This document shows positions 29,340-45,568 of a stretch of DNA of 49,868 nucleotides, in pieces. Source of the stretch: Treponema sp. (lineage in GTDB: Bacteria > Spirochaetota > Spirochaetia > Treponematales > Treponemataceae); contig JBQNBK010000001.1 of the NCBI GenBank assembly GCA_052169975.1, positions 1-49,868 of the forward strand. Reading direction: 5' to 3'. The number at the start of each line of letters is the position of its first letter. Positions within the stretch are counted from its first letter, which is position 1. The notes under the pieces were generated by a model that saw nothing but the letters and a program-made list of their open reading frames with translations, was not told the DNA's origin and did no database searches. A program made the position numbers and the translations under genes.

Positions 29340-29544
29340 AAAACAGTGCAGTTTTCGATATCGATTATATGCAAGTTTGCATGCCGTTAACGACCGTTCT
29401 CGCATAGTAAAAACGGTCGTTAATGATAGGCGAGAACGTACGTTAACGAGACCATACTCTAGCTAGAGTTTAGATGACTTCTAGCTAGAGTTTGTGCAAA
29501 GTCTAGCTAGACTATTTTTCAACTCTAGCTAGAGTTGAAAAATA
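29340..29544 (+). repeat. Dispersed ~205-bp element, copy 1: phased palindrome array
   Basis: AACGNNCGTT at 29389/29412/29435 and TCTAGCTAGA at 29458/29480/29502/29524; homologous to the reverse complement of 45364-45568. Confidence 0.9.
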
Positions 29545-29860: not shown

Positions 29861-32800
29861 ATGAAAAAACTCGCAATATTTTCCGTTGCTACAATTCTTT
29901 TTCTTTTTGTTTCTTGTATACAAAATAATTTTGGAGAGAGCCAAGGAGATTATGGAACAGTTGTTTTTGATCTAACAGGAGGTAATGTAAGATCTATTAA
30001 TGAATCAACTGCACTTCCTGAGCTTTCAAATTCCAATATGAGAATTGTTGTGGAATCTAATGGCAAAAAAATAGATGAAAAAGATTTTAAAGATAAAGAA
30101 GAAAGAAAATATAAAAAGTCTTTCTTGGTGGGAAGTAAAATAAAGTTTATTGTTATTGTTATGACAAAGGGCGGAAAGTGGAAAGGCATTCAAGAACACA
30201 CTGTGGTAAGTGGTGTTAATTCTTTGAATGTTAAGTTAAAAAAAGCAGTTGCTTCAGTTGAACCTTTAAAGTTTAAGCTAACTCCTCAAGAGGGTAATTA
30301 TTCTGCCAAATTTAGTCTAGGCTTCTTTGATGAAACACCTTTTTTTGATGAAGAGGTTTCATCTGATGAATATAATTGGCTAATTCCTTCGTTTTGCCGA
30401 GACCAAAAAGGGAGAATCTATGTTTTTTATAAAGGAAAAGATGGAGGTGCTGAAGAAAAGGCTTTTATAAGACGGTATACGAGTGAAGGCGATGAAGATG
30501 ATAAATTTACTTATGAACTAGGAGCAGCCCAAAAAACTAATTTTATTATTACCTCTGACCAAAAAACAGGTGCTGTGTTTGCATCTTATATAGATTTAGG
30601 GGCACATAAAACTGAGTTATTCTTTGTGGAAGAAGGAAAACCTGCAACATTAGGGAATAGTATAGCACCAGCAGTGCCTATGGGTGATGTATATGCAATA
30701 AGTGTATATGATAATATTTTTTCTTTTGTAATGAAGGGGTCAGATTATATTGAGTTTTATAAGTATGATGCTAAGAATAAATCTGTTTCGCCAATGGGAA
30801 AAAAAGAAATAAGCGCTAATACTTTACGAATGAATGTGAAAGGAAGTGACCCAAGTGAGCCTGCAACAAGCGGTGAATATGTTGATTCCTTTATGAATGA
30901 TAAAAATATCTACCTTATGTTTAGATATACTAATGGTAAATATTTTGCTTCGACCGGTATGATTTTAAAGTGCGACTATGCTGTTGGAGAGGGCGGTGTT
31001 GTTGTTAGCGATTTTAAAAAACTTTTGACTAAAAATGAGTATATTGCGGATGAGCATAACATCATCAACATTGAAGATGAGGCAACTGAGCTTTATGGAC
31101 CACAGAAATTTGTAGGCTTTAACGAAGATGTTTTGTATATTGCAGATGATGGCGTTGTTCAAGAATATGAAGCTGGCACTCCTCAGCTTAGCAAAAACAA
31201 AAATAGGTTAGTAAACTTTAGCTTAAAAAATGAAAGTATTTCAATTGAAAAAGGTAAGGCTAATCTTCCTGAAACATGGATGCCAGAGGCAAAACCTATA
31301 GAAAAAACAAAGCCAACGGTGTTTTTTAGCTATGAGAAGACTCCGTCAGACACTTTTGCTAAAATAAAGCTACATGACGGAAGCAATTTTTTAACTTTTG
31401 AGGGTGATAAGCAAGTTTTAGATATTGGAAACCCAAATAAAGATGGTCTTAGGTATATTATTGACTCATCTGGTAATTTTTATGTGTTACATGTAGATTT
31501 TACTAGTCCTAATGCATTAAAAAAATATTCGCCACACAAAAGTGGAAATAATGTTGTGTATGAACGTGATCATGGTTTCCCAGATAATTTGGCAGATGCT
31601 GATGACACTAACCTTGTAACTAACTTATATTATGATAATGTAAAAAAAGACTTGTATTATTATATTGGCTCTCTTAATAACCTATACAAGCTTAAAAGAA
31701 GACACTGGAAAAAGATAGAAAGAGGCAATTATACGTTCAAACCAGAGGCTATGGTTATTTATGATGGAAGGGTTTGGGCATATAATGATGTCAATAAAAA
31801 GATAGAAAATATAGGCATAAAGGAAGATGATAAGTTAGAAGATAATTCTGTTGAATTAGCCTTACCAACAGAGCTTAAAACAGAGCTTGGGGGTAAGAAA
31901 ATTTGGAATCTTTCAATGTATGATGATGTTCTTTATTTCTTGTATTCAGGAGGTAATGATCGCAACATTTCTACTTTAGCAATGCAAAAAGATAATTTGA
32001 ATAATGTAAAAACTGAAAAATCAATTTTTGTGTTGCCACAAATCCTAGAATATGTAAGACCAATAGGCTTTGATAAAGAGAATGGAGTGAAGTTTTTTAT
32101 TGACGAGATAAAAAAAGATTATGATGGAAGGGTTTTTACAAATGAAGATAAATATGTTTCATTAAACTACACTCCTACTGCTCTTTCTGCCACACCACAT
32201 AATCTTCCTTCTAATGATATTACTTGGTATGAACAAAAGCCTGTTTGGCCAGGCACAAAGCAGATTATGCTATGGCGTAGTATTAATAGTAATTTTAGTA
32301 TTCCTAATACTGCTAAAGAAACAAAGTATTTTGCAGTTCTTGAAGATGCAATAAAATCAGGACGATTGCCTACAGAAATATCTCTTGAAGGTAATAGTTA
32401 TTACAATGTTTATAACAAATTTTGCTATGACCAATTTGGAAACTTATATGTATTAATTCAAAAAGCTCCTAGGTACTATGTTGTGCGTTTTCCATTAAAT
32501 GATAAAGGAGAATATGATTTTAAAATATTAGGTGAGAAAATAAAGGATAGTACTTTTGATAATTGGAATGCAAAGTTTGATGTAACCAGTGGTAGTCTTA
32601 ATAATAATGTTGATAAGTTTATTATGGCAGTTTATGCGGATACTCCTGATTCAGGTACACTGTATTATAGAGTGTTTGATCCTCCCAATACGATTGATAT
32701 CAAAAGTAATAATTTTACTGTTAAAAACTTTAATCAAAATACTAGTTACCAATGGATGAGTGTGCCAGAAAAATATAATGCTACAGCCTCTTCTGCATTT

Positions 32801-33610
32801 GAAAGGCAATTTATGGCTATGGCAGCAAATAAAGATGGTGTATTTATAGCAGAAAAAGATTTAGAATATGTGCAAGTATCAGGCAACCCAAATAAATATT
32901 ATAAGAACTATGGTATAGATGTTAGAAAGTATCCTCTTTATAATAAGGATAACCCAACTTCTTCAATCCCCTATGAATCACCACAAGGAACGATAAACTT
33001 AGTGAGTCATGGTACACTTACTAACATGTTTAAGAATTATAATCAGCCAAATGCCCCAACAAATCCTGGATTGCAAGATGGTCATGCACAATGGGATGAA
33101 TATATTCAAGAAAGTATTTCTGATATGTATGCTTATGATGGTGCTTTATATATGCTTTCTTATAAACAAGTTGGTGGATTCTCTTTTGATACTCCAAATA
33201 ATGGGGAGCCTAAATTTAACAAAGCAATAGTTTCTGGCAATTTGTTGAAGATTGGGGATACTAAGTTTACAGGAACTTCTGGTACCGCTAAATCTATTGC
33301 TTCATCTGAAAGTCTTCATTCAAACCCTGTTGCAAAATTTGCTCCTTCTCATATTATTGGAGTGTTGCCCAAAAAGATTGTTATAGCCTCTAATGGATAT
33401 CATGGATACAAGCTTAAAGGAGGCACTGATGATGGTAAGCAACAAGGTGATAACTATGACAAGGTTTATTTCATTAATCTAGGAGAAGTGGAAAAATTGG
33501 AAGAGGCAGAAATAAACAATGCAAAATTCTTTAACTTTCAAATTAAGCATTACACAGAAGCAGAACTTTTAGGTGCTTCACCATCAACTTCTGCTTTTAT
33601 ATTTGAATAA
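29861..33610 (+). CDS. Large surface lipoprotein with three internally repeated beta-rich modules
   Basis: MKKLAIF...LFVSC lipobox; recurring D-x-x-G-(R/N)-x-Y-V motif; AGGAG SD. Confidence 0.85.
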   Translation: MKKLAIFSVATILFLFVSCIQNNFGESQGDYGTVVFDLTGGNVRSINESTALPELSNSNMRIVVESNGKKIDEKDFKDKEERKYKKSFLVGSKIKFIVIVMTKGGKWKGIQEHTVVSGVNSLNVKLKKAVASVEPLKFKLTPQEGNYSAKFSLGFFDETPFFDEEVSSDEYNWLIPSFCRDQKGRIYVFYKGKDGGAEEKAFIRRYTSEGDEDDKFTYELGAAQKTNFIITSDQKTGAVFASYIDLGAHKTELFFVEEGKPATLGNSIAPAVPMGDVYAISVYDNIFSFVMKGSDYIEFYKYDAKNKSVSPMGKKEISANTLRMNVKGSDPSEPATSGEYVDSFMNDKNIYLMFRYTNGKYFASTGMILKCDYAVGEGGVVVSDFKKLLTKNEYIADEHNIINIEDEATELYGPQKFVGFNEDVLYIADDGVVQEYEAGTPQLSKNKNRLVNFSLKNESISIEKGKANLPETWMPEAKPIEKTKPTVFFSYEKTPSDTFAKIKLHDGSNFLTFEGDKQVLDIGNPNKDGLRYIIDSSGNFYVLHVDFTSPNALKKYSPHKSGNNVVYERDHGFPDNLADADDTNLVTNLYYDNVKKDLYYYIGSLNNLYKLKRRHWKKIERGNYTFKPEAMVIYDGRVWAYNDVNKKIENIGIKEDDKLEDNSVELALPTELKTELGGKKIWNLSMYDDVLYFLYSGGNDRNISTLAMQKDNLNNVKTEKSIFVLPQILEYVRPIGFDKENGVKFFIDEIKKDYDGRVFTNEDKYVSLNYTPTALSATPHNLPSNDITWYEQKPVWPGTKQIMLWRSINSNFSIPNTAKETKYFAVLEDAIKSGRLPTEISLEGNSYYNVYNKFCYDQFGNLYVLIQKAPRYYVVRFPLNDKGEYDFKILGEKIKDSTFDNWNAKFDVTSGSLNNNVDKFIMAVYADTPDSGTLYYRVFDPPNTIDIKSNNFTVKNFNQNTSYQWMSVPEKYNATASSAFERQFMAMAANKDGVFIAEKDLEYVQVSGNPNKYYKNYGIDVRKYPLYNKDNPTSSIPYESPQGTINLVSHGTLTNMFKNYNQPNAPTNPGLQDGHAQWDEYIQESISDMYAYDGALYMLSYKQVGGFSFDTPNNGEPKFNKAIVSGNLLKIGDTKFTGTSGTAKSIASSESLHSNPVAKFAPSHIIGVLPKKIVIASNGYHGYKLKGGTDDGKQQGDNYDKVYFINLGEVEKLEEAEINNAKFFNFQIKHYTEAELLGASPSTSAFIFE

Positions 33611-33619
33611 AACTTTGAA

Positions 33620-33732
33620 AACACTTTTAAGCATTTGCGTGCTAATGGCACGCTTAAGTGCTTTTACCGGCTTTACTGTATAGTATAAAGAGAGAGGCGA
33701 CTTCTTATGATAAGAAGTTGCCTCTTTTTTTT
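33620..33732 (+). repeat. Two-hairpin repeat, copy A (diverged); includes an intrinsic terminator
   Basis: First 23 nt identical to 35593-35615; terminator AGAGGCGACTTCTT/AAGAAGTTGCCTCT + T run at 33693-33732. Confidence 0.8.
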
Positions 33733-33793
33733 GTTTTAGTATATAATATAAACATTCCAAAAGACTGATATTTTTAGAGATTTCTATATCTAT

Positions 33794-34591
33794 ATGATAA
33801 ATAAAAAAATGAAAGAGTTTGATGAACTCACAATACAAGATGACTTTATATTTTATAAACTTATGCAAAATAAAGGTTTATGTACTAAAATTATTCAAAC
33901 ACTTTTGAGTAGCAAGATAGGAAAGATCATTGAACTTACACCACAAAACATAATAAAAAATACATATGGCTCTAAAGGTGTGCGACTTGATATTTTAGCA
34001 AAAGATGAAAAGCAGAGATTATATAATATAGAAATGCAAATGATGAATGAGTATTATATAGTTTTTAGGCTGAGATACTACCAGGCTTCTATAGATATAT
34101 CTTCACTTGAAAGTGGACAGGGTTATAATGAATTACCAAATGTCATCATTGTGTTTTTGTGTAACAAAGATTCTTTAGCGTATAATCTTCCTGTATACAC
34201 ATTGAAAAATTATTGCTTACAAACAAATAGCATAGTAGATGATGGAACGACACATATGATAATAAATTATTCATTATATGAGTTAATAAAGGATGAAGAA
34301 TTACGAGCTTTTTGTAGATATTGTAAAACAAAAGAAATTACTAGCAAACTTACTGAGGAGATAGACAATATGATAAGTAATATAAAACAGAATGAATTGG
34401 CAAGACAAGAGTATAGTTTTTTATTTAATCGATATCCTGATGATATACAACTTGCCATACAAGAAGGTAGGCAAAAAGGTGTGGCGGAAGGTATACTAAC
34501 AACAGCTAAGCGAATGAAAGAAAATGATTTTGATATTTCTACAATTGCTAAAATAACAGGGCTTTCAAAACAAGAAATAGAATATTTATAA
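33794..34591 (+). CDS. Rpn family recombination-promoting nuclease / PD-(D/E)XK putative transposase
   Basis: DDFIFYKLM, KGVRLDI, NIEMQ, RLRYYQASID, C-terminal EGRQKG...IAKITGLS. Confidence 0.92.
   Translation: MINKKMKEFDELTIQDDFIFYKLMQNKGLCTKIIQTLLSSKIGKIIELTPQNIIKNTYGSKGVRLDILAKDEKQRLYNIEMQMMNEYYIVFRLRYYQASIDISSLESGQGYNELPNVIIVFLCNKDSLAYNLPVYTLKNYCLQTNSIVDDGTTHMIINYSLYELIKDEELRAFCRYCKTKEITSKLTEEIDNMISNIKQNELARQEYSFLFNRYPDDIQLAIQEGRQKGVAEGILTTAKRMKENDFDISTIAKITGLSKQEIEYL
34370..34591 (+). CDS. Putative intragenic small protein (RpnS-like), 73 aa
   Basis: GAGGAG (34355-34360) 9 nt before in-frame ATG 34370. Confidence 0.5.
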   Translation: MISNIKQNELARQEYSFLFNRYPDDIQLAIQEGRQKGVAEGILTTAKRMKENDFDISTIAKITGLSKQEIEYL

Positions 34592-34596
34592 TTCTC

Positions 34597-34737
34597 ATGT
34601 TACACAAAATAGATAGTTTTCAACAAACACTTTTAAGTATTTGCGTGCCAATTTATGGTACGCAAATGTTTTTGCAAGCTTTACTAGAAAGCATAAAACA
34701 AGAGGGGACTTCTTTTAATGAGAAGTTACCTGTTTTT
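34597..34737 (+). pseudogene. Duplicated 5' fragment of the GT2 gene (two-hairpin repeat, copy B)
   Basis: 34626-34737 matches 35593-35704 at 108/112 nt; encodes TLLSICVPIYGTQMFLQALLESIK; the ORF runs on to 34806 in unrelated sequence. Confidence 0.88.
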
Positions 34738-34762
34738 TTATTTTTCTGTATAGGGTATTTAC

Positions 34763-35557
34763 ATGAAAAAACGGAAGCAGTTTGCAGAACTTACAATTCA
34801 AGATGACTTTATGTTTTGTAAGGTTATGCAAAACATGAATATTTGCAAACAAGTTTTGGAACTTGTATTGAAAGAGGAGAATATACATATTAAAAAAATC
34901 TCGGTACAACATACTATAGAGAATAATTCAGAGATCAAGTCAGTGCGTCTTGATGTTCTTGCTGAAGATGAAAATGAAAATAAATTCGATATTGAGATGC
35001 AAATGGTAAACAATGATAAAATCCCTAAAAGGATGCGTCTTTACCAAGCTAGTATTGATGTTTACACTATAGATAAGGGTATGTTGTATGCTGATATGCC
35101 TGATACAATAATTATATTTTTCTGCATGTTTGACCCAATATGCAAAGGATTGCCAATTTATACGTTTGAAAATACTTGTCAGGAAAACAAGGATATAAAA
35201 CTAAACGATGGAACATTTAAGATTATCATAAATGTTAAAGCATATGAAAAAGTGAAAAACCCTGAATTGAAAAAACTATTAAAATATATCTGTGATGGGA
35301 TTGTGACAAACTCACTAACGGAGGAAATCGAAATGAATGTGGCAACAATAAAACAAAATCAAGTCTTTTTGAAAGAGTATGAGTCTTTTTATGCAAGAAT
35401 GCAAGACGAAAGAGCAGAAGGAAGAAAAGAAGGAAGAAAAGAAGGAGAAAAGATGAAAGCTCTTGAAACAGCATCTCGTATGAAACAGGCTAATTGCGAC
35501 ATATCTTTTATCGCTAACATGACAGGGCTTACCCAAGAAGAGATTCAAATACTATAG
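34763..35557 (+). CDS. Rpn family recombination-promoting nuclease / PD-(D/E)XK putative transposase
   Basis: DDFMFCKVM, KSVRLDV, DIEMQ, RMRLYQASID, EGRKEGRKEG repeats (12-bp units 35417-35452), IANMTGLT. Confidence 0.93.
   Translation: MKKRKQFAELTIQDDFMFCKVMQNMNICKQVLELVLKEENIHIKKISVQHTIENNSEIKSVRLDVLAEDENENKFDIEMQMVNNDKIPKRMRLYQASIDVYTIDKGMLYADMPDTIIIFFCMFDPICKGLPIYTFENTCQENKDIKLNDGTFKIIINVKAYEKVKNPELKKLLKYICDGIVTNSLTEEIEMNVATIKQNQVFLKEYESFYARMQDERAEGRKEGRKEGEKMKALETASRMKQANCDISFIANMTGLTQEEIQIL
35333..35557 (+). CDS. Putative intragenic small protein (RpnS-like), 74 aa
   Basis: GGAGG (35320-35324) 8 nt before in-frame ATG 35333. Confidence 0.55.
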   Translation: MNVATIKQNQVFLKEYESFYARMQDERAEGRKEGRKEGEKMKALETASRMKQANCDISFIANMTGLTQEEIQIL

Positions 35558-35566
35558 ATTTTTGCT

Positions 35567-36673
35567 ATGTATTGTGTAAACTCAAATACTTCAACACTTT
35601 TAAGCATTTGCGTGCCAATTTATGGTACGCAAATGTTTTTGCAAGCTTTACTAGAAAGCATAAAAGAAGAGGTAACTTCTTTTAATGAGAAGTTACCTGT
35701 TTTTCTTGAAGAAAGATTTTCTTATATTGAACAAGATGTAATCAATAGCTTTTTAAGTTTTGTTTCAAGCTATAAAATGCTTTTTGAAGTGATTATTGTG
35801 GACGATGGCACTCAAGAAAAGAATGCAAAAAAACTTATCAATAAGGTCATAAAAGAGGCTCAAAAAGATATCAAAAAATATTGCAATGCAGATTTAATTT
35901 TAATAGAACATAGTAGGAATTTAGGGCTTGTGGAAGCAAGACGATCTGCCATTTTTGAAGCAAAAGGAAAATGGTGTATGTTTGTTGATTCTGATGATGA
36001 ATTACCAGAATTTTCTATTATGAGTCTTTTATGTAATGCCTATTTTTCAAAAGCGGATATTGTGCATGGAAAGGCAAGGTTAGATGTAAGTGAAGTACGA
36101 GAAGATTTGTATTCAACTGAAAAAATTTTAATGTTGGAAAAAACTATACAAAATGTTCATAATGGAATATTAAAAGCCGAAGAGATATTGAATAATTTCC
36201 TGATAGAAAAAGGTCATGTAGGCTTTTTGTGGAGCAAAATATATTTAACAGAAATAGTTAAAGAAGCTTTTGAAGATATTCCTCGAACTTATTGTGTGAT
36301 GACAGAAGATTTATTAATTTATTTTTTTATTTTGCAACATGCAAAAAGTTATTTGGGTATTGAAGATTTTGTCTACACTTATTATTTAGGAAGAGGTGTT
36401 ACTGGAAACACTGATATTTCTTCTATTGCACAGTGGGAAAGAGCTTCTACAGGAGGAGCTACTTTTACAATAATATTTGATTACTTAACTACCCAACCTC
36501 TTAATGAAGACTTGCGTGAGGCTTTGGAAAAGCTTTGTTTTTATCATGTAATTCAAAATGTAAAGCATTTGAAAAGAGTTGTTCCTGAATTAAAGGAAGA
36601 AGCTCGAAATATTCTCATTGAATATTGGGGAGATAACATGGTGAAAGAGGCAGAAGAATATATAGATAATTGA
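35567..36673 (+). CDS. Glycosyltransferase family 2
   Basis: LSICVPIYG, EVIIVDDG, NLGLVEAR, FVDSDD, LWSKIY, TED. Confidence 0.92.
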   Translation: MYCVNSNTSTLLSICVPIYGTQMFLQALLESIKEEVTSFNEKLPVFLEERFSYIEQDVINSFLSFVSSYKMLFEVIIVDDGTQEKNAKKLINKVIKEAQKDIKKYCNADLILIEHSRNLGLVEARRSAIFEAKGKWCMFVDSDDELPEFSIMSLLCNAYFSKADIVHGKARLDVSEVREDLYSTEKILMLEKTIQNVHNGILKAEEILNNFLIEKGHVGFLWSKIYLTEIVKEAFEDIPRTYCVMTEDLLIYFFILQHAKSYLGIEDFVYTYYLGRGVTGNTDISSIAQWERASTGGATFTIIFDYLTTQPLNEDLREALEKLCFYHVIQNVKHLKRVVPELKEEARNILIEYWGDNMVKEAEEYIDN

Positions 36674-45363: not shown

Positions 45364-45568
45364 TATTTTGCAACTTCTAGCTAGAGTTTAGATCGCTTCC
45401 AGCTAGACTTTACAAAAACTCTAGCTAGAAGCGATCTAAACTCTAGCTAGACTATGGTCTCGTTTCTTGTCGTTTTCGCCTATCATTAACGACCGTTTTT
45501 GCTATGCGAGAACGAGCGTTAATGGGATGCAAAGTCGCATATAATTGATGCAGAAACTGTATTGTTTT
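45364..45568 (-). repeat. Dispersed ~205-bp element, copy 2 (inverted)
   Basis: TCTAGCTAGA-type units at 45376/45398/45420/45442, AACGNNCGTT-type at 45465 (degenerate)/45488/45511. Confidence 0.9.

Follow-up and report, generated by a model that had tools for sequence, protein, structure and literature searches.

How do two clearly different Rpn-family nuclease genes come to lie side by side between three copies of a repeat that is at the same time the start of a neighbouring glycosyltransferase gene? The question is raised by a locus in the genome of a Treponema sp. (NCBI GenBank assembly GCA_052169975.1, contig JBQNBK010000001.1, positions 1 to 49,868 of the forward strand; this stretch of 49,868 nucleotides (nt) is the window referred to below), which an earlier reading (the original prediction) had taken for a programmed, integrase-free expansion site for Rpn defence genes. 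We think it likely, though well short of certain, that the two-gene array instead arose through unequal homologous recombination between alleles that carried a single rpn gene each, and that the repeats are starts of the family 2 glycosyltransferase gene (GT2) with hairpins that belong to the messenger RNA (mRNA) of the lipoprotein gene upstream. The source assembly comprises 186 contigs and is 83% complete, and genome-wide counts and absences given here carry that scope. The features of the locus are these:

29861..33610, + strand: open reading frame (ORF) for a predicted large, variable surface lipoprotein ("big", 1249 aa) with a lipobox-like N-terminal Cys; ancestral upstream partner of GT2
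33620..33733, + strand: repeat A, a non-coding remnant of a GT2 5' end, beginning 10 nt past the lipoprotein stop
~33629-33662 and 33687-33731, + strand: hairpin 1 and the terminator-like hairpin 2 (with T8) of repeat A
33718..33747, + strand: predicted hybrid promoter TTGCCT-18-TATAAT, with the -35 box in the 3' arm of hairpin 2 and the -10 box in the rpn flank
33794..34591, + strand: rpn1, Rpn-family PD-(D/E)XK nuclease, 265 aa (TIGR01784, PF12784)
34597..34806, + strand: orphan ORF of 69 codons, spanning spacer y and repeat B and running into the rpn2 flank; probably an old GT2 start
34626..34737, + strand: repeat B, apparently a hybrid with a GT2-type body and a 3' flank of the upstream-remnant type
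34763..35557, + strand: rpn2, Rpn-family nuclease with EGRK repeats, 264 aa (TIGR01784)
35593..35704, + strand: repeat C, codons ~10-46 (~37 codons) of the intact GT2, with both hairpins
35567..36673, + strand: GT2, 368 aa (PF00535), followed by def-fmt

Coordinates, open reading frames and sequence comparison confirm the predicted layout A-rpn1-B-rpn2-C, within the gene order lipoprotein gene, A, rpn1, B, rpn2, GT2 (with C in its codons) and def-fmt. B and C are identical at 108 of 112 positions (96%; they differ at repeat positions 13, 74, 81 and 82), and A shows 76% identity to B and likewise to C. That B and C agree so closely despite divergent Rpn proteins, as had been noticed earlier, is real: Rpn1 and Rpn2 are 41% identical, and the nuclease body of rpn2 is 42% identical to rpn1. 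A simple tandem duplication of one rpn unit, discounted already in the original prediction, is out, given this 41% identity and because rpn2 is closer to genes elsewhere. By BLAST and a covariance model, the genome holds only three copies of the repeat (A, B and C), all at this one locus, on which ground an insertion sequence or a dispersed family of the miniature inverted-repeat transposable element or repetitive extragenic palindrome (MITE/REP) type was rejected. Rpn genes elsewhere do not share the repeat: the 10 other rpn matches in this genome lack it in their flanks, and the rpn2-like genes of a relative (G024; 68-70% identical) sit elsewhere, in a tandem array without it. In that relative, near-identical rpn2-like genes stand in tandem (L136 1480-2517; L154 1-1720), with an rpn gene of another subfamily after them and a short direct repeat that includes a -10 box between them.

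In all three relatives with a complete locus (G024, L058 and L061), the slot holds a remnant, one rpn1 ortholog (83-84%) and then GT2, and rpn1 of the window is 83-85% identical to the slot orthologs of G024, L058, L059 and L061. A remnant followed by an rpn1-type start was also seen in G001 (L047), G019 and L059; counterparts of repeat A of the same type and in the same position occur in G001 (L047, L048) and L061; and the relatives' contigs often end at the repeat. The closest relative of rpn2 is cluster P0019, whose nuclease body is 87-88% identical. Five of the 15 P0019 members listed have an N-terminal read-through in the frame of the repeat, as against none of 58 other rpn2-like proteins; a repeat-derived read-through is also present in 4 of the 16 rpn1-cluster members listed (members listed are 16 of 123 for the rpn1 cluster and 15 of 22 for P0019; P0094 has 100), and the N-terminal extensions of P0057 and P0051 match the frame of a second remnant in G001. 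P0019 further shares five longest-contig sizes with GT2 cluster P0096, of which the GT2 of the window is the sister (83% identity, support 100/99). From the indirect linkage given by this read-through, the shared contig sizes and the sister position of P0096, a sister lineage very likely carries remnant, rpn2-type gene and GT2 in that order. The candidate explanation of rpn2 as peculiar to this single genome is overturned by the same read-through and contig sizes. The predicted swapping of rpn genes at the slot is thus supported, with rpn1-type and rpn2-type genes behind the repeat in different lineages. The variation expected from aligning the locus over relatives was found in part: rpn identity varies, but the relatives' slots hold one rpn gene each. 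The loci examined offer only two rpn types at the slot and one two-gene array, none longer.

Repeat B appears to record how the two genes were joined. An ATG follows the rpn1 stop by 5 nt (34597) and the rpn2 stop by 9 nt (35567), as had been noted, but the codons between ATG and repeat are not unrelated, as had been thought: they are natural GT2 leaders. In the ORF at 34597, 8 of the first 13 residues are identical to the leader of an intact GT2, P0095, and the full P0095 leader is present in 8 of 11 members of that cluster. On its other side, the 3' flank of B matches the flank of the upstream remnant in G024 (p = 0.003) and not the flank of C (p = 0.96). With a P0095-type leader on the left and an upstream-type flank on the right, B reads as a hybrid of a GT2 start and a remnant junction, and it is likely the old GT2 start left behind when unequal recombination joined two alternative alleles. 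Spacer x resembles the relatives' spacer in a DNA test (p = 0.0015), but the unrelated control gave p = 0.009 and we give this little weight. The P0095-type leader, the 3' flank and the rpn2-type gene behind the repeat elsewhere thus support the earlier proposal that an intact GT2 is kept and an old start left; its qualification of this process as programmed is not supported.

We envisage a history in four steps. In many treponemes the lipoprotein gene leads straight into GT2, an order that is seen in DNA, and a hairpin conserved within the 5' codons of GT2 would limit GT2 expression relative to the surface protein. An rpn gene would then have entered behind the GT2 start; the old start would have stayed as the 3' signal of the lipoprotein gene (A), GT2 would have retained another start of its own (C), and the rpn gene would have received its -35 box from hairpin 2. 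Lineages would from then on hold in this slot either an rpn1-type gene (seen as DNA) or an rpn2-type gene (from peptides and contig sizes). Finally, recombination of an rpn1 allele, at its GT2 start, with an rpn2 allele, at its upstream remnant, would have produced B and with it the arrangement A-rpn1-B-rpn2-C; a crossover in the opposite sense would collapse the array again. RecA is present in the genome, so that ordinary homologous recombination suffices without a specialised recombinase. If both RpnL/RpnS pairs work, the array would provide the cell with two nuclease specificities. GT2 alleles and Rpn tails are mosaic. L059 and L060 contain another GT2 start, which a microhomology of 10 nt connects to the 3' end of a further lipoprotein gene (L059 200-420; L060 185-425), suggesting replacement of a surface-protein gene; the GT2 fragment is cut inside hairpin 1, so that the GT2 fragments of the locus do not have a single crossover point in common.

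The hairpins have an origin of their own. The lipoprotein gene has homologs that run straight into a GT2 homolog, with no rpn gene between, in eight further genomes of the genus (three times in tandem in G010), and in such genomes hairpin 1 is already formed by the 5' codons of GT2. The in-codon hairpin lies at LSVPVYGTES or LCVPVYGTEG, just past the lipoprotein stop (L049, L062, L063, L068, L070 and others). GT2 relatives were gathered with an alignment query, a single-GT2 query having found none in metagenome or genome contigs, and hairpin 1 was tested against sequences that encode the same peptide with randomly chosen synonymous codons. From 60 rows, three clade rows were set apart, as were seven with a mis-picked motif (L064, L067, L071, L108, L012 and two of L107) and one that was a second paralog (L105); the motif was missing from three more hits (the second hit of L064, L072 and L011). 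Values of z <= -3 were obtained for 22 of 24 GT2 copies in the lipoprotein-adjacent group versus 1 of 25 other homologs, and three base pairs at third codon positions are intact in 22, 23 and 24 of the 24 copies of that group versus 4, 14 and 11 of the 25 others. In scans of eight genes, the segment with the hairpin took rank 1 to 3 among ~55 segments in seven; the eighth gene belongs to the other group. G001 has a remnant behind each of two different lipoprotein genes, and in G041 a two-hairpin, GT2-start-like remnant, with a frame similar to GT2 N-termini (shuffle p 0 to 0.006), lies behind the lipoprotein gene with neither rpn nor GT2 after it. Judged by these comparisons, the rpn genes are younger than hairpin 1, the remnant keeps to the lipoprotein gene, and the hairpins are likely a 3' signal that ends or stabilises the lipoprotein mRNA. 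Where GT2 codons follow the variable surface lipoprotein, the hairpin is likely an element that sets an expression ratio. In place of hairpin 1, L193 (3510-3910), L059 and L060 have tandem units of ~21-24 nt that contain GAGCG and vary in number; in L059 and L060 this array stands between the lipoprotein end and hairpin 2.

In the window, two hairpins fold in A, B and C with z = -6.2, -6.1 and -8.3, and none of 200 shuffles was equally stable, so the claim that A keeps both hairpins in spite of its divergence holds. In the non-coding copies, hairpin 2 is followed by 7-8 T in a row; C has T5, and the coding copies of G024, L058 and L061 have no such stretch of T. The TTGCCT-18-TATAAT promoter said to begin in hairpin 2 of A is present at 33718-33747. 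A promoter scan by itself was not above chance (14 sites against 12.8 expected), but of the eight upstream-type copies that were examined, seven retain the motif with 18-19 nt between TTGCCT and TATAAT; in B it is degenerate. In six of six relatives (L046 4399-4413 and equivalents in L047, L058, L059, L061 and L193), TATAAT stands 6 nt ahead of the ATG of rpn1, suggesting a leaderless mRNA there. In the window, the position of the relatives' rpn1 ATG reads ATT and a later ATG is used instead. The old 5' end, proposed earlier as terminator and promoter for the incoming gene, thus plausibly supplies a terminator and a -35 box, both being predictions from sequence. The hairpin-2 pattern gave no matches in viral contigs, and a search of the window repeats against Rfam gave 13 weak matches, none of which reached the gathering score.

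Several observations weigh against the recombination history. Its rpn2-type single-gene allele is linked to the slot through peptides and contig sizes and not as DNA, and none of the relatives showed an allele in which a P0095-type GT2 comes after rpn1. B and C are 96% identical although they are assigned different origins, which requires the assumption that the alleles were closely related or that gene conversion took place afterwards. The residues of C match the P0095 type (32-34 of 41) better than its own ortholog P0096 (26-27 of 41), which fits conversion but is also compatible with relaxed selection in P0096. The compensatory pair earlier pointed out in hairpin 2 does exist (columns 82/104, C-G in A versus T-A in C), but covariation among the eight clade copies was not above the shuffle control, 74 of 500 shuffles scoring as high; 93.8% of cells across these copies pair, often through G-U, and one-sided G-U changes are numerous. 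Since hairpin 1 lacks a U-tract, termination by it is doubtful. Three rows counted among the other homologs have a lipoprotein-like hit upstream but no hairpin (L086, L088 and L105; z -0.4, 1.0 and 0.0), and the grouping of hairpin with lipoprotein is confounded with phylogeny; a link between hairpin 1 and the upstream lipoprotein gene is for these reasons suggestive, not proven. A conserved stem-loop does lie just 3' of the operon's first gene, though with the same confounding.

The same facts allow other histories. The two-rpn array could be ancestral in the clade, the single-rpn loci of relatives having collapsed between repeats; both rpn types are indeed found behind the repeat in different lineages, and a collapse would also give an intact GT2 a B-type leader, as in P0095. 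However, only 4 of 112 sites distinguish B from C, against a divergence of ~20% between lineages, and loss of rpn2 through a collapse between B and C predicts leader y behind rpn1, where G024, L058 and L061 carry another. We regard an ancestral array as rather improbable.

A programmed, integrase-free cassette system, in which Rpn or a hairpin-recognising host factor cuts near the repeat and cassettes are excised, circularised and reinserted, was quite unlikely on balance. Its repeat borders are sharp and two rpn types stand behind the same repeat, as such a system would have it; 3 of the 16 rpn1-cluster members listed have a hybrid of GT2 start and remnant fused in frame to rpn1, a sign of ordinary recombination as well; and one of these, P0064, lies on a contig of 997 nt, which equals a unit of 942 plus 55, the length expected of a looped or tandem unit in a k = 55 assembly, a weak point made post hoc. 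Against these stand the uniqueness of the repeat to one locus in the genome, the presence of hairpin 1 before and without rpn, and the different end point of the GT2 fragment in L059 and L060. The attC sites of integrons have the core patterns RYYYAAC / GTTRRRY, and neither is found on either strand of A, B or C, which moreover form two separate stems; nor did any integron integrase (IntI) in the 83% complete genome score over the TIGR02249 cut-off, and the three tyrosine recombinases found are on other contigs. An attC cassette array was rejected on the absence of core sites and IntI and on the two separate stems. Overexpression of Rpn raises RecA-independent recombination in E. coli, according to the available text of PMC5350276, whereas the available part of Zhong et al. 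(10.1101/2023.05.02.539157) finds autonomous Rpn transposition to be without evidence. The bolder form of the idea is an active exchange platform on which Rpn nicking or breaks at hairpins yield repeat-rpn circles that reinsert at the GT2 starts of other strains. If true, treponemes would stack and swap Rpn specificities beside a variable surface protein without an integrase, with GT2 always rebuilt; we hold this to be decidedly doubtful. With hairpin 1 older than rpn, the repeat limited to a single locus, and no more than two rpn types and one two-gene array seen, a programmed system is not called for, and the programmed expansion site of the original prediction is not supported.

An assembly chimera, in which a metagenome-type assembly would have linked two single-rpn alleles that occur together across the repeat they share, is very unlikely. 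The genome is fragmented (186 contigs, 83% complete), the first two differences between B and C enclose 60 identical bases, and relatives' contigs often break at the repeat, but a chimera requires a remnant nearly identical to a GT2 start, and those seen reach only 76-77%. B also differs from C at four positions, and its flanks are unique on either side.

Both nucleases are clear members of their family, with TIGR01784 scores of 136.5 bits for rpn1 and 135.4 bits for rpn2 (cut-off 52.1). The catalytic D, D and E-x-Q, matched to RpnA by motif, occur as QDDF, RLD[IV]L and [IV]EMQ in six of six genes; the catalytic residues of RpnA are D11, D63, E82 and Q84 in the available text of PMC5350276. 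An internal start is predicted in rpn1 at M193 (34370), giving an RpnS of 73 aa with GAGGAG before the internal ATG, and in rpn2 at M191 (35333), giving an RpnS of 74 aa; a GGAG-type site with an in-frame internal ATG at M191-194 is predicted in all six rpn genes checked. Each rpn gene is thus likely to encode an RpnL toxin with an intragenic RpnS antitoxin, and a role in defence would follow from membership of the family; PADLOC gave no hits on the locus. Elsewhere in this genome an rpn paralog has a frame break (G000:C106:2026-2858).

The upstream gene product would be a lipoprotein, from its lipobox-like N-terminal Cys (29861..33610); it matched nothing in Pfam, NCBIfam or PADLOC and is 48-53% identical to clade homologs at loci of the same type. 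Clade genomes have up to three paralogs with 42-53% mutual identity, one of them with a frame break (G024:C4:3112-6829). Outside the slot, the window has two copies of a ~185-bp palindrome-rich element with TCTAGCTAGA units, at 29353-29540 and, on the opposite strand, at 45368-45549; with 39 BLAST matches of at least 80 nt in the genome, the element looks like a dispersed MITE/REP-like family.

We found no description of the locus or of the in-codon hairpin in the open literature searched. The stem-loops of Clostridia operons (PMC9045158, PMC4423207, as far as their available text goes) likewise follow a first gene and are predicted to set ratios, but they are intergenic, whereas here the hairpin lies within the codons of the downstream gene. 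Integron attC arrays, known also from Treponema and described in the available part of PMC3607928 by AAC/GTT triplets and R/L boxes, are alike only superficially, in the order structured repeat, gene, structured repeat; unlike them, the repeats here have no R''/R' cores, form two hairpins and not one R/L-box stem, are coding and come without IntI. The likeness to the Rpn toxin-antitoxin genes of Zhong et al. extends from the TIGR01784 match, D...D...E-x-Q and the internal start to C-terminal repeats of four residues whose number varies among strains. In what is available of that work (10.1101/2023.05.02.539157), rpn genes have no flanking repeats or target duplications and arrays arise by tandem duplication; the array here, by contrast, is made of 41%-identical genes between 112-bp direct repeats of a neighbour's start. 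Rpn genes spread horizontally without defined ends, and the locus offers a testable case of a bracketed slot: since the duplicated start of the neighbour brackets it, rpn genes can be swapped or stacked by host recombination with the neighbouring gene left unbroken. The mechanism at the slot is probably ordinary, and the array a single case of two genes. A parallel is rpnC (yadD) at panC-panD of enterobacteria, where two distinct rpn versions occupy one syntenic slot; no bracketing duplicated gene start and no versions side by side are reported in the available text (PMC5350276). Our locus is likely a further form of this known exchange of Rpn genes at a slot, here bracketed by a neighbour's start, and not a dedicated cassette system.

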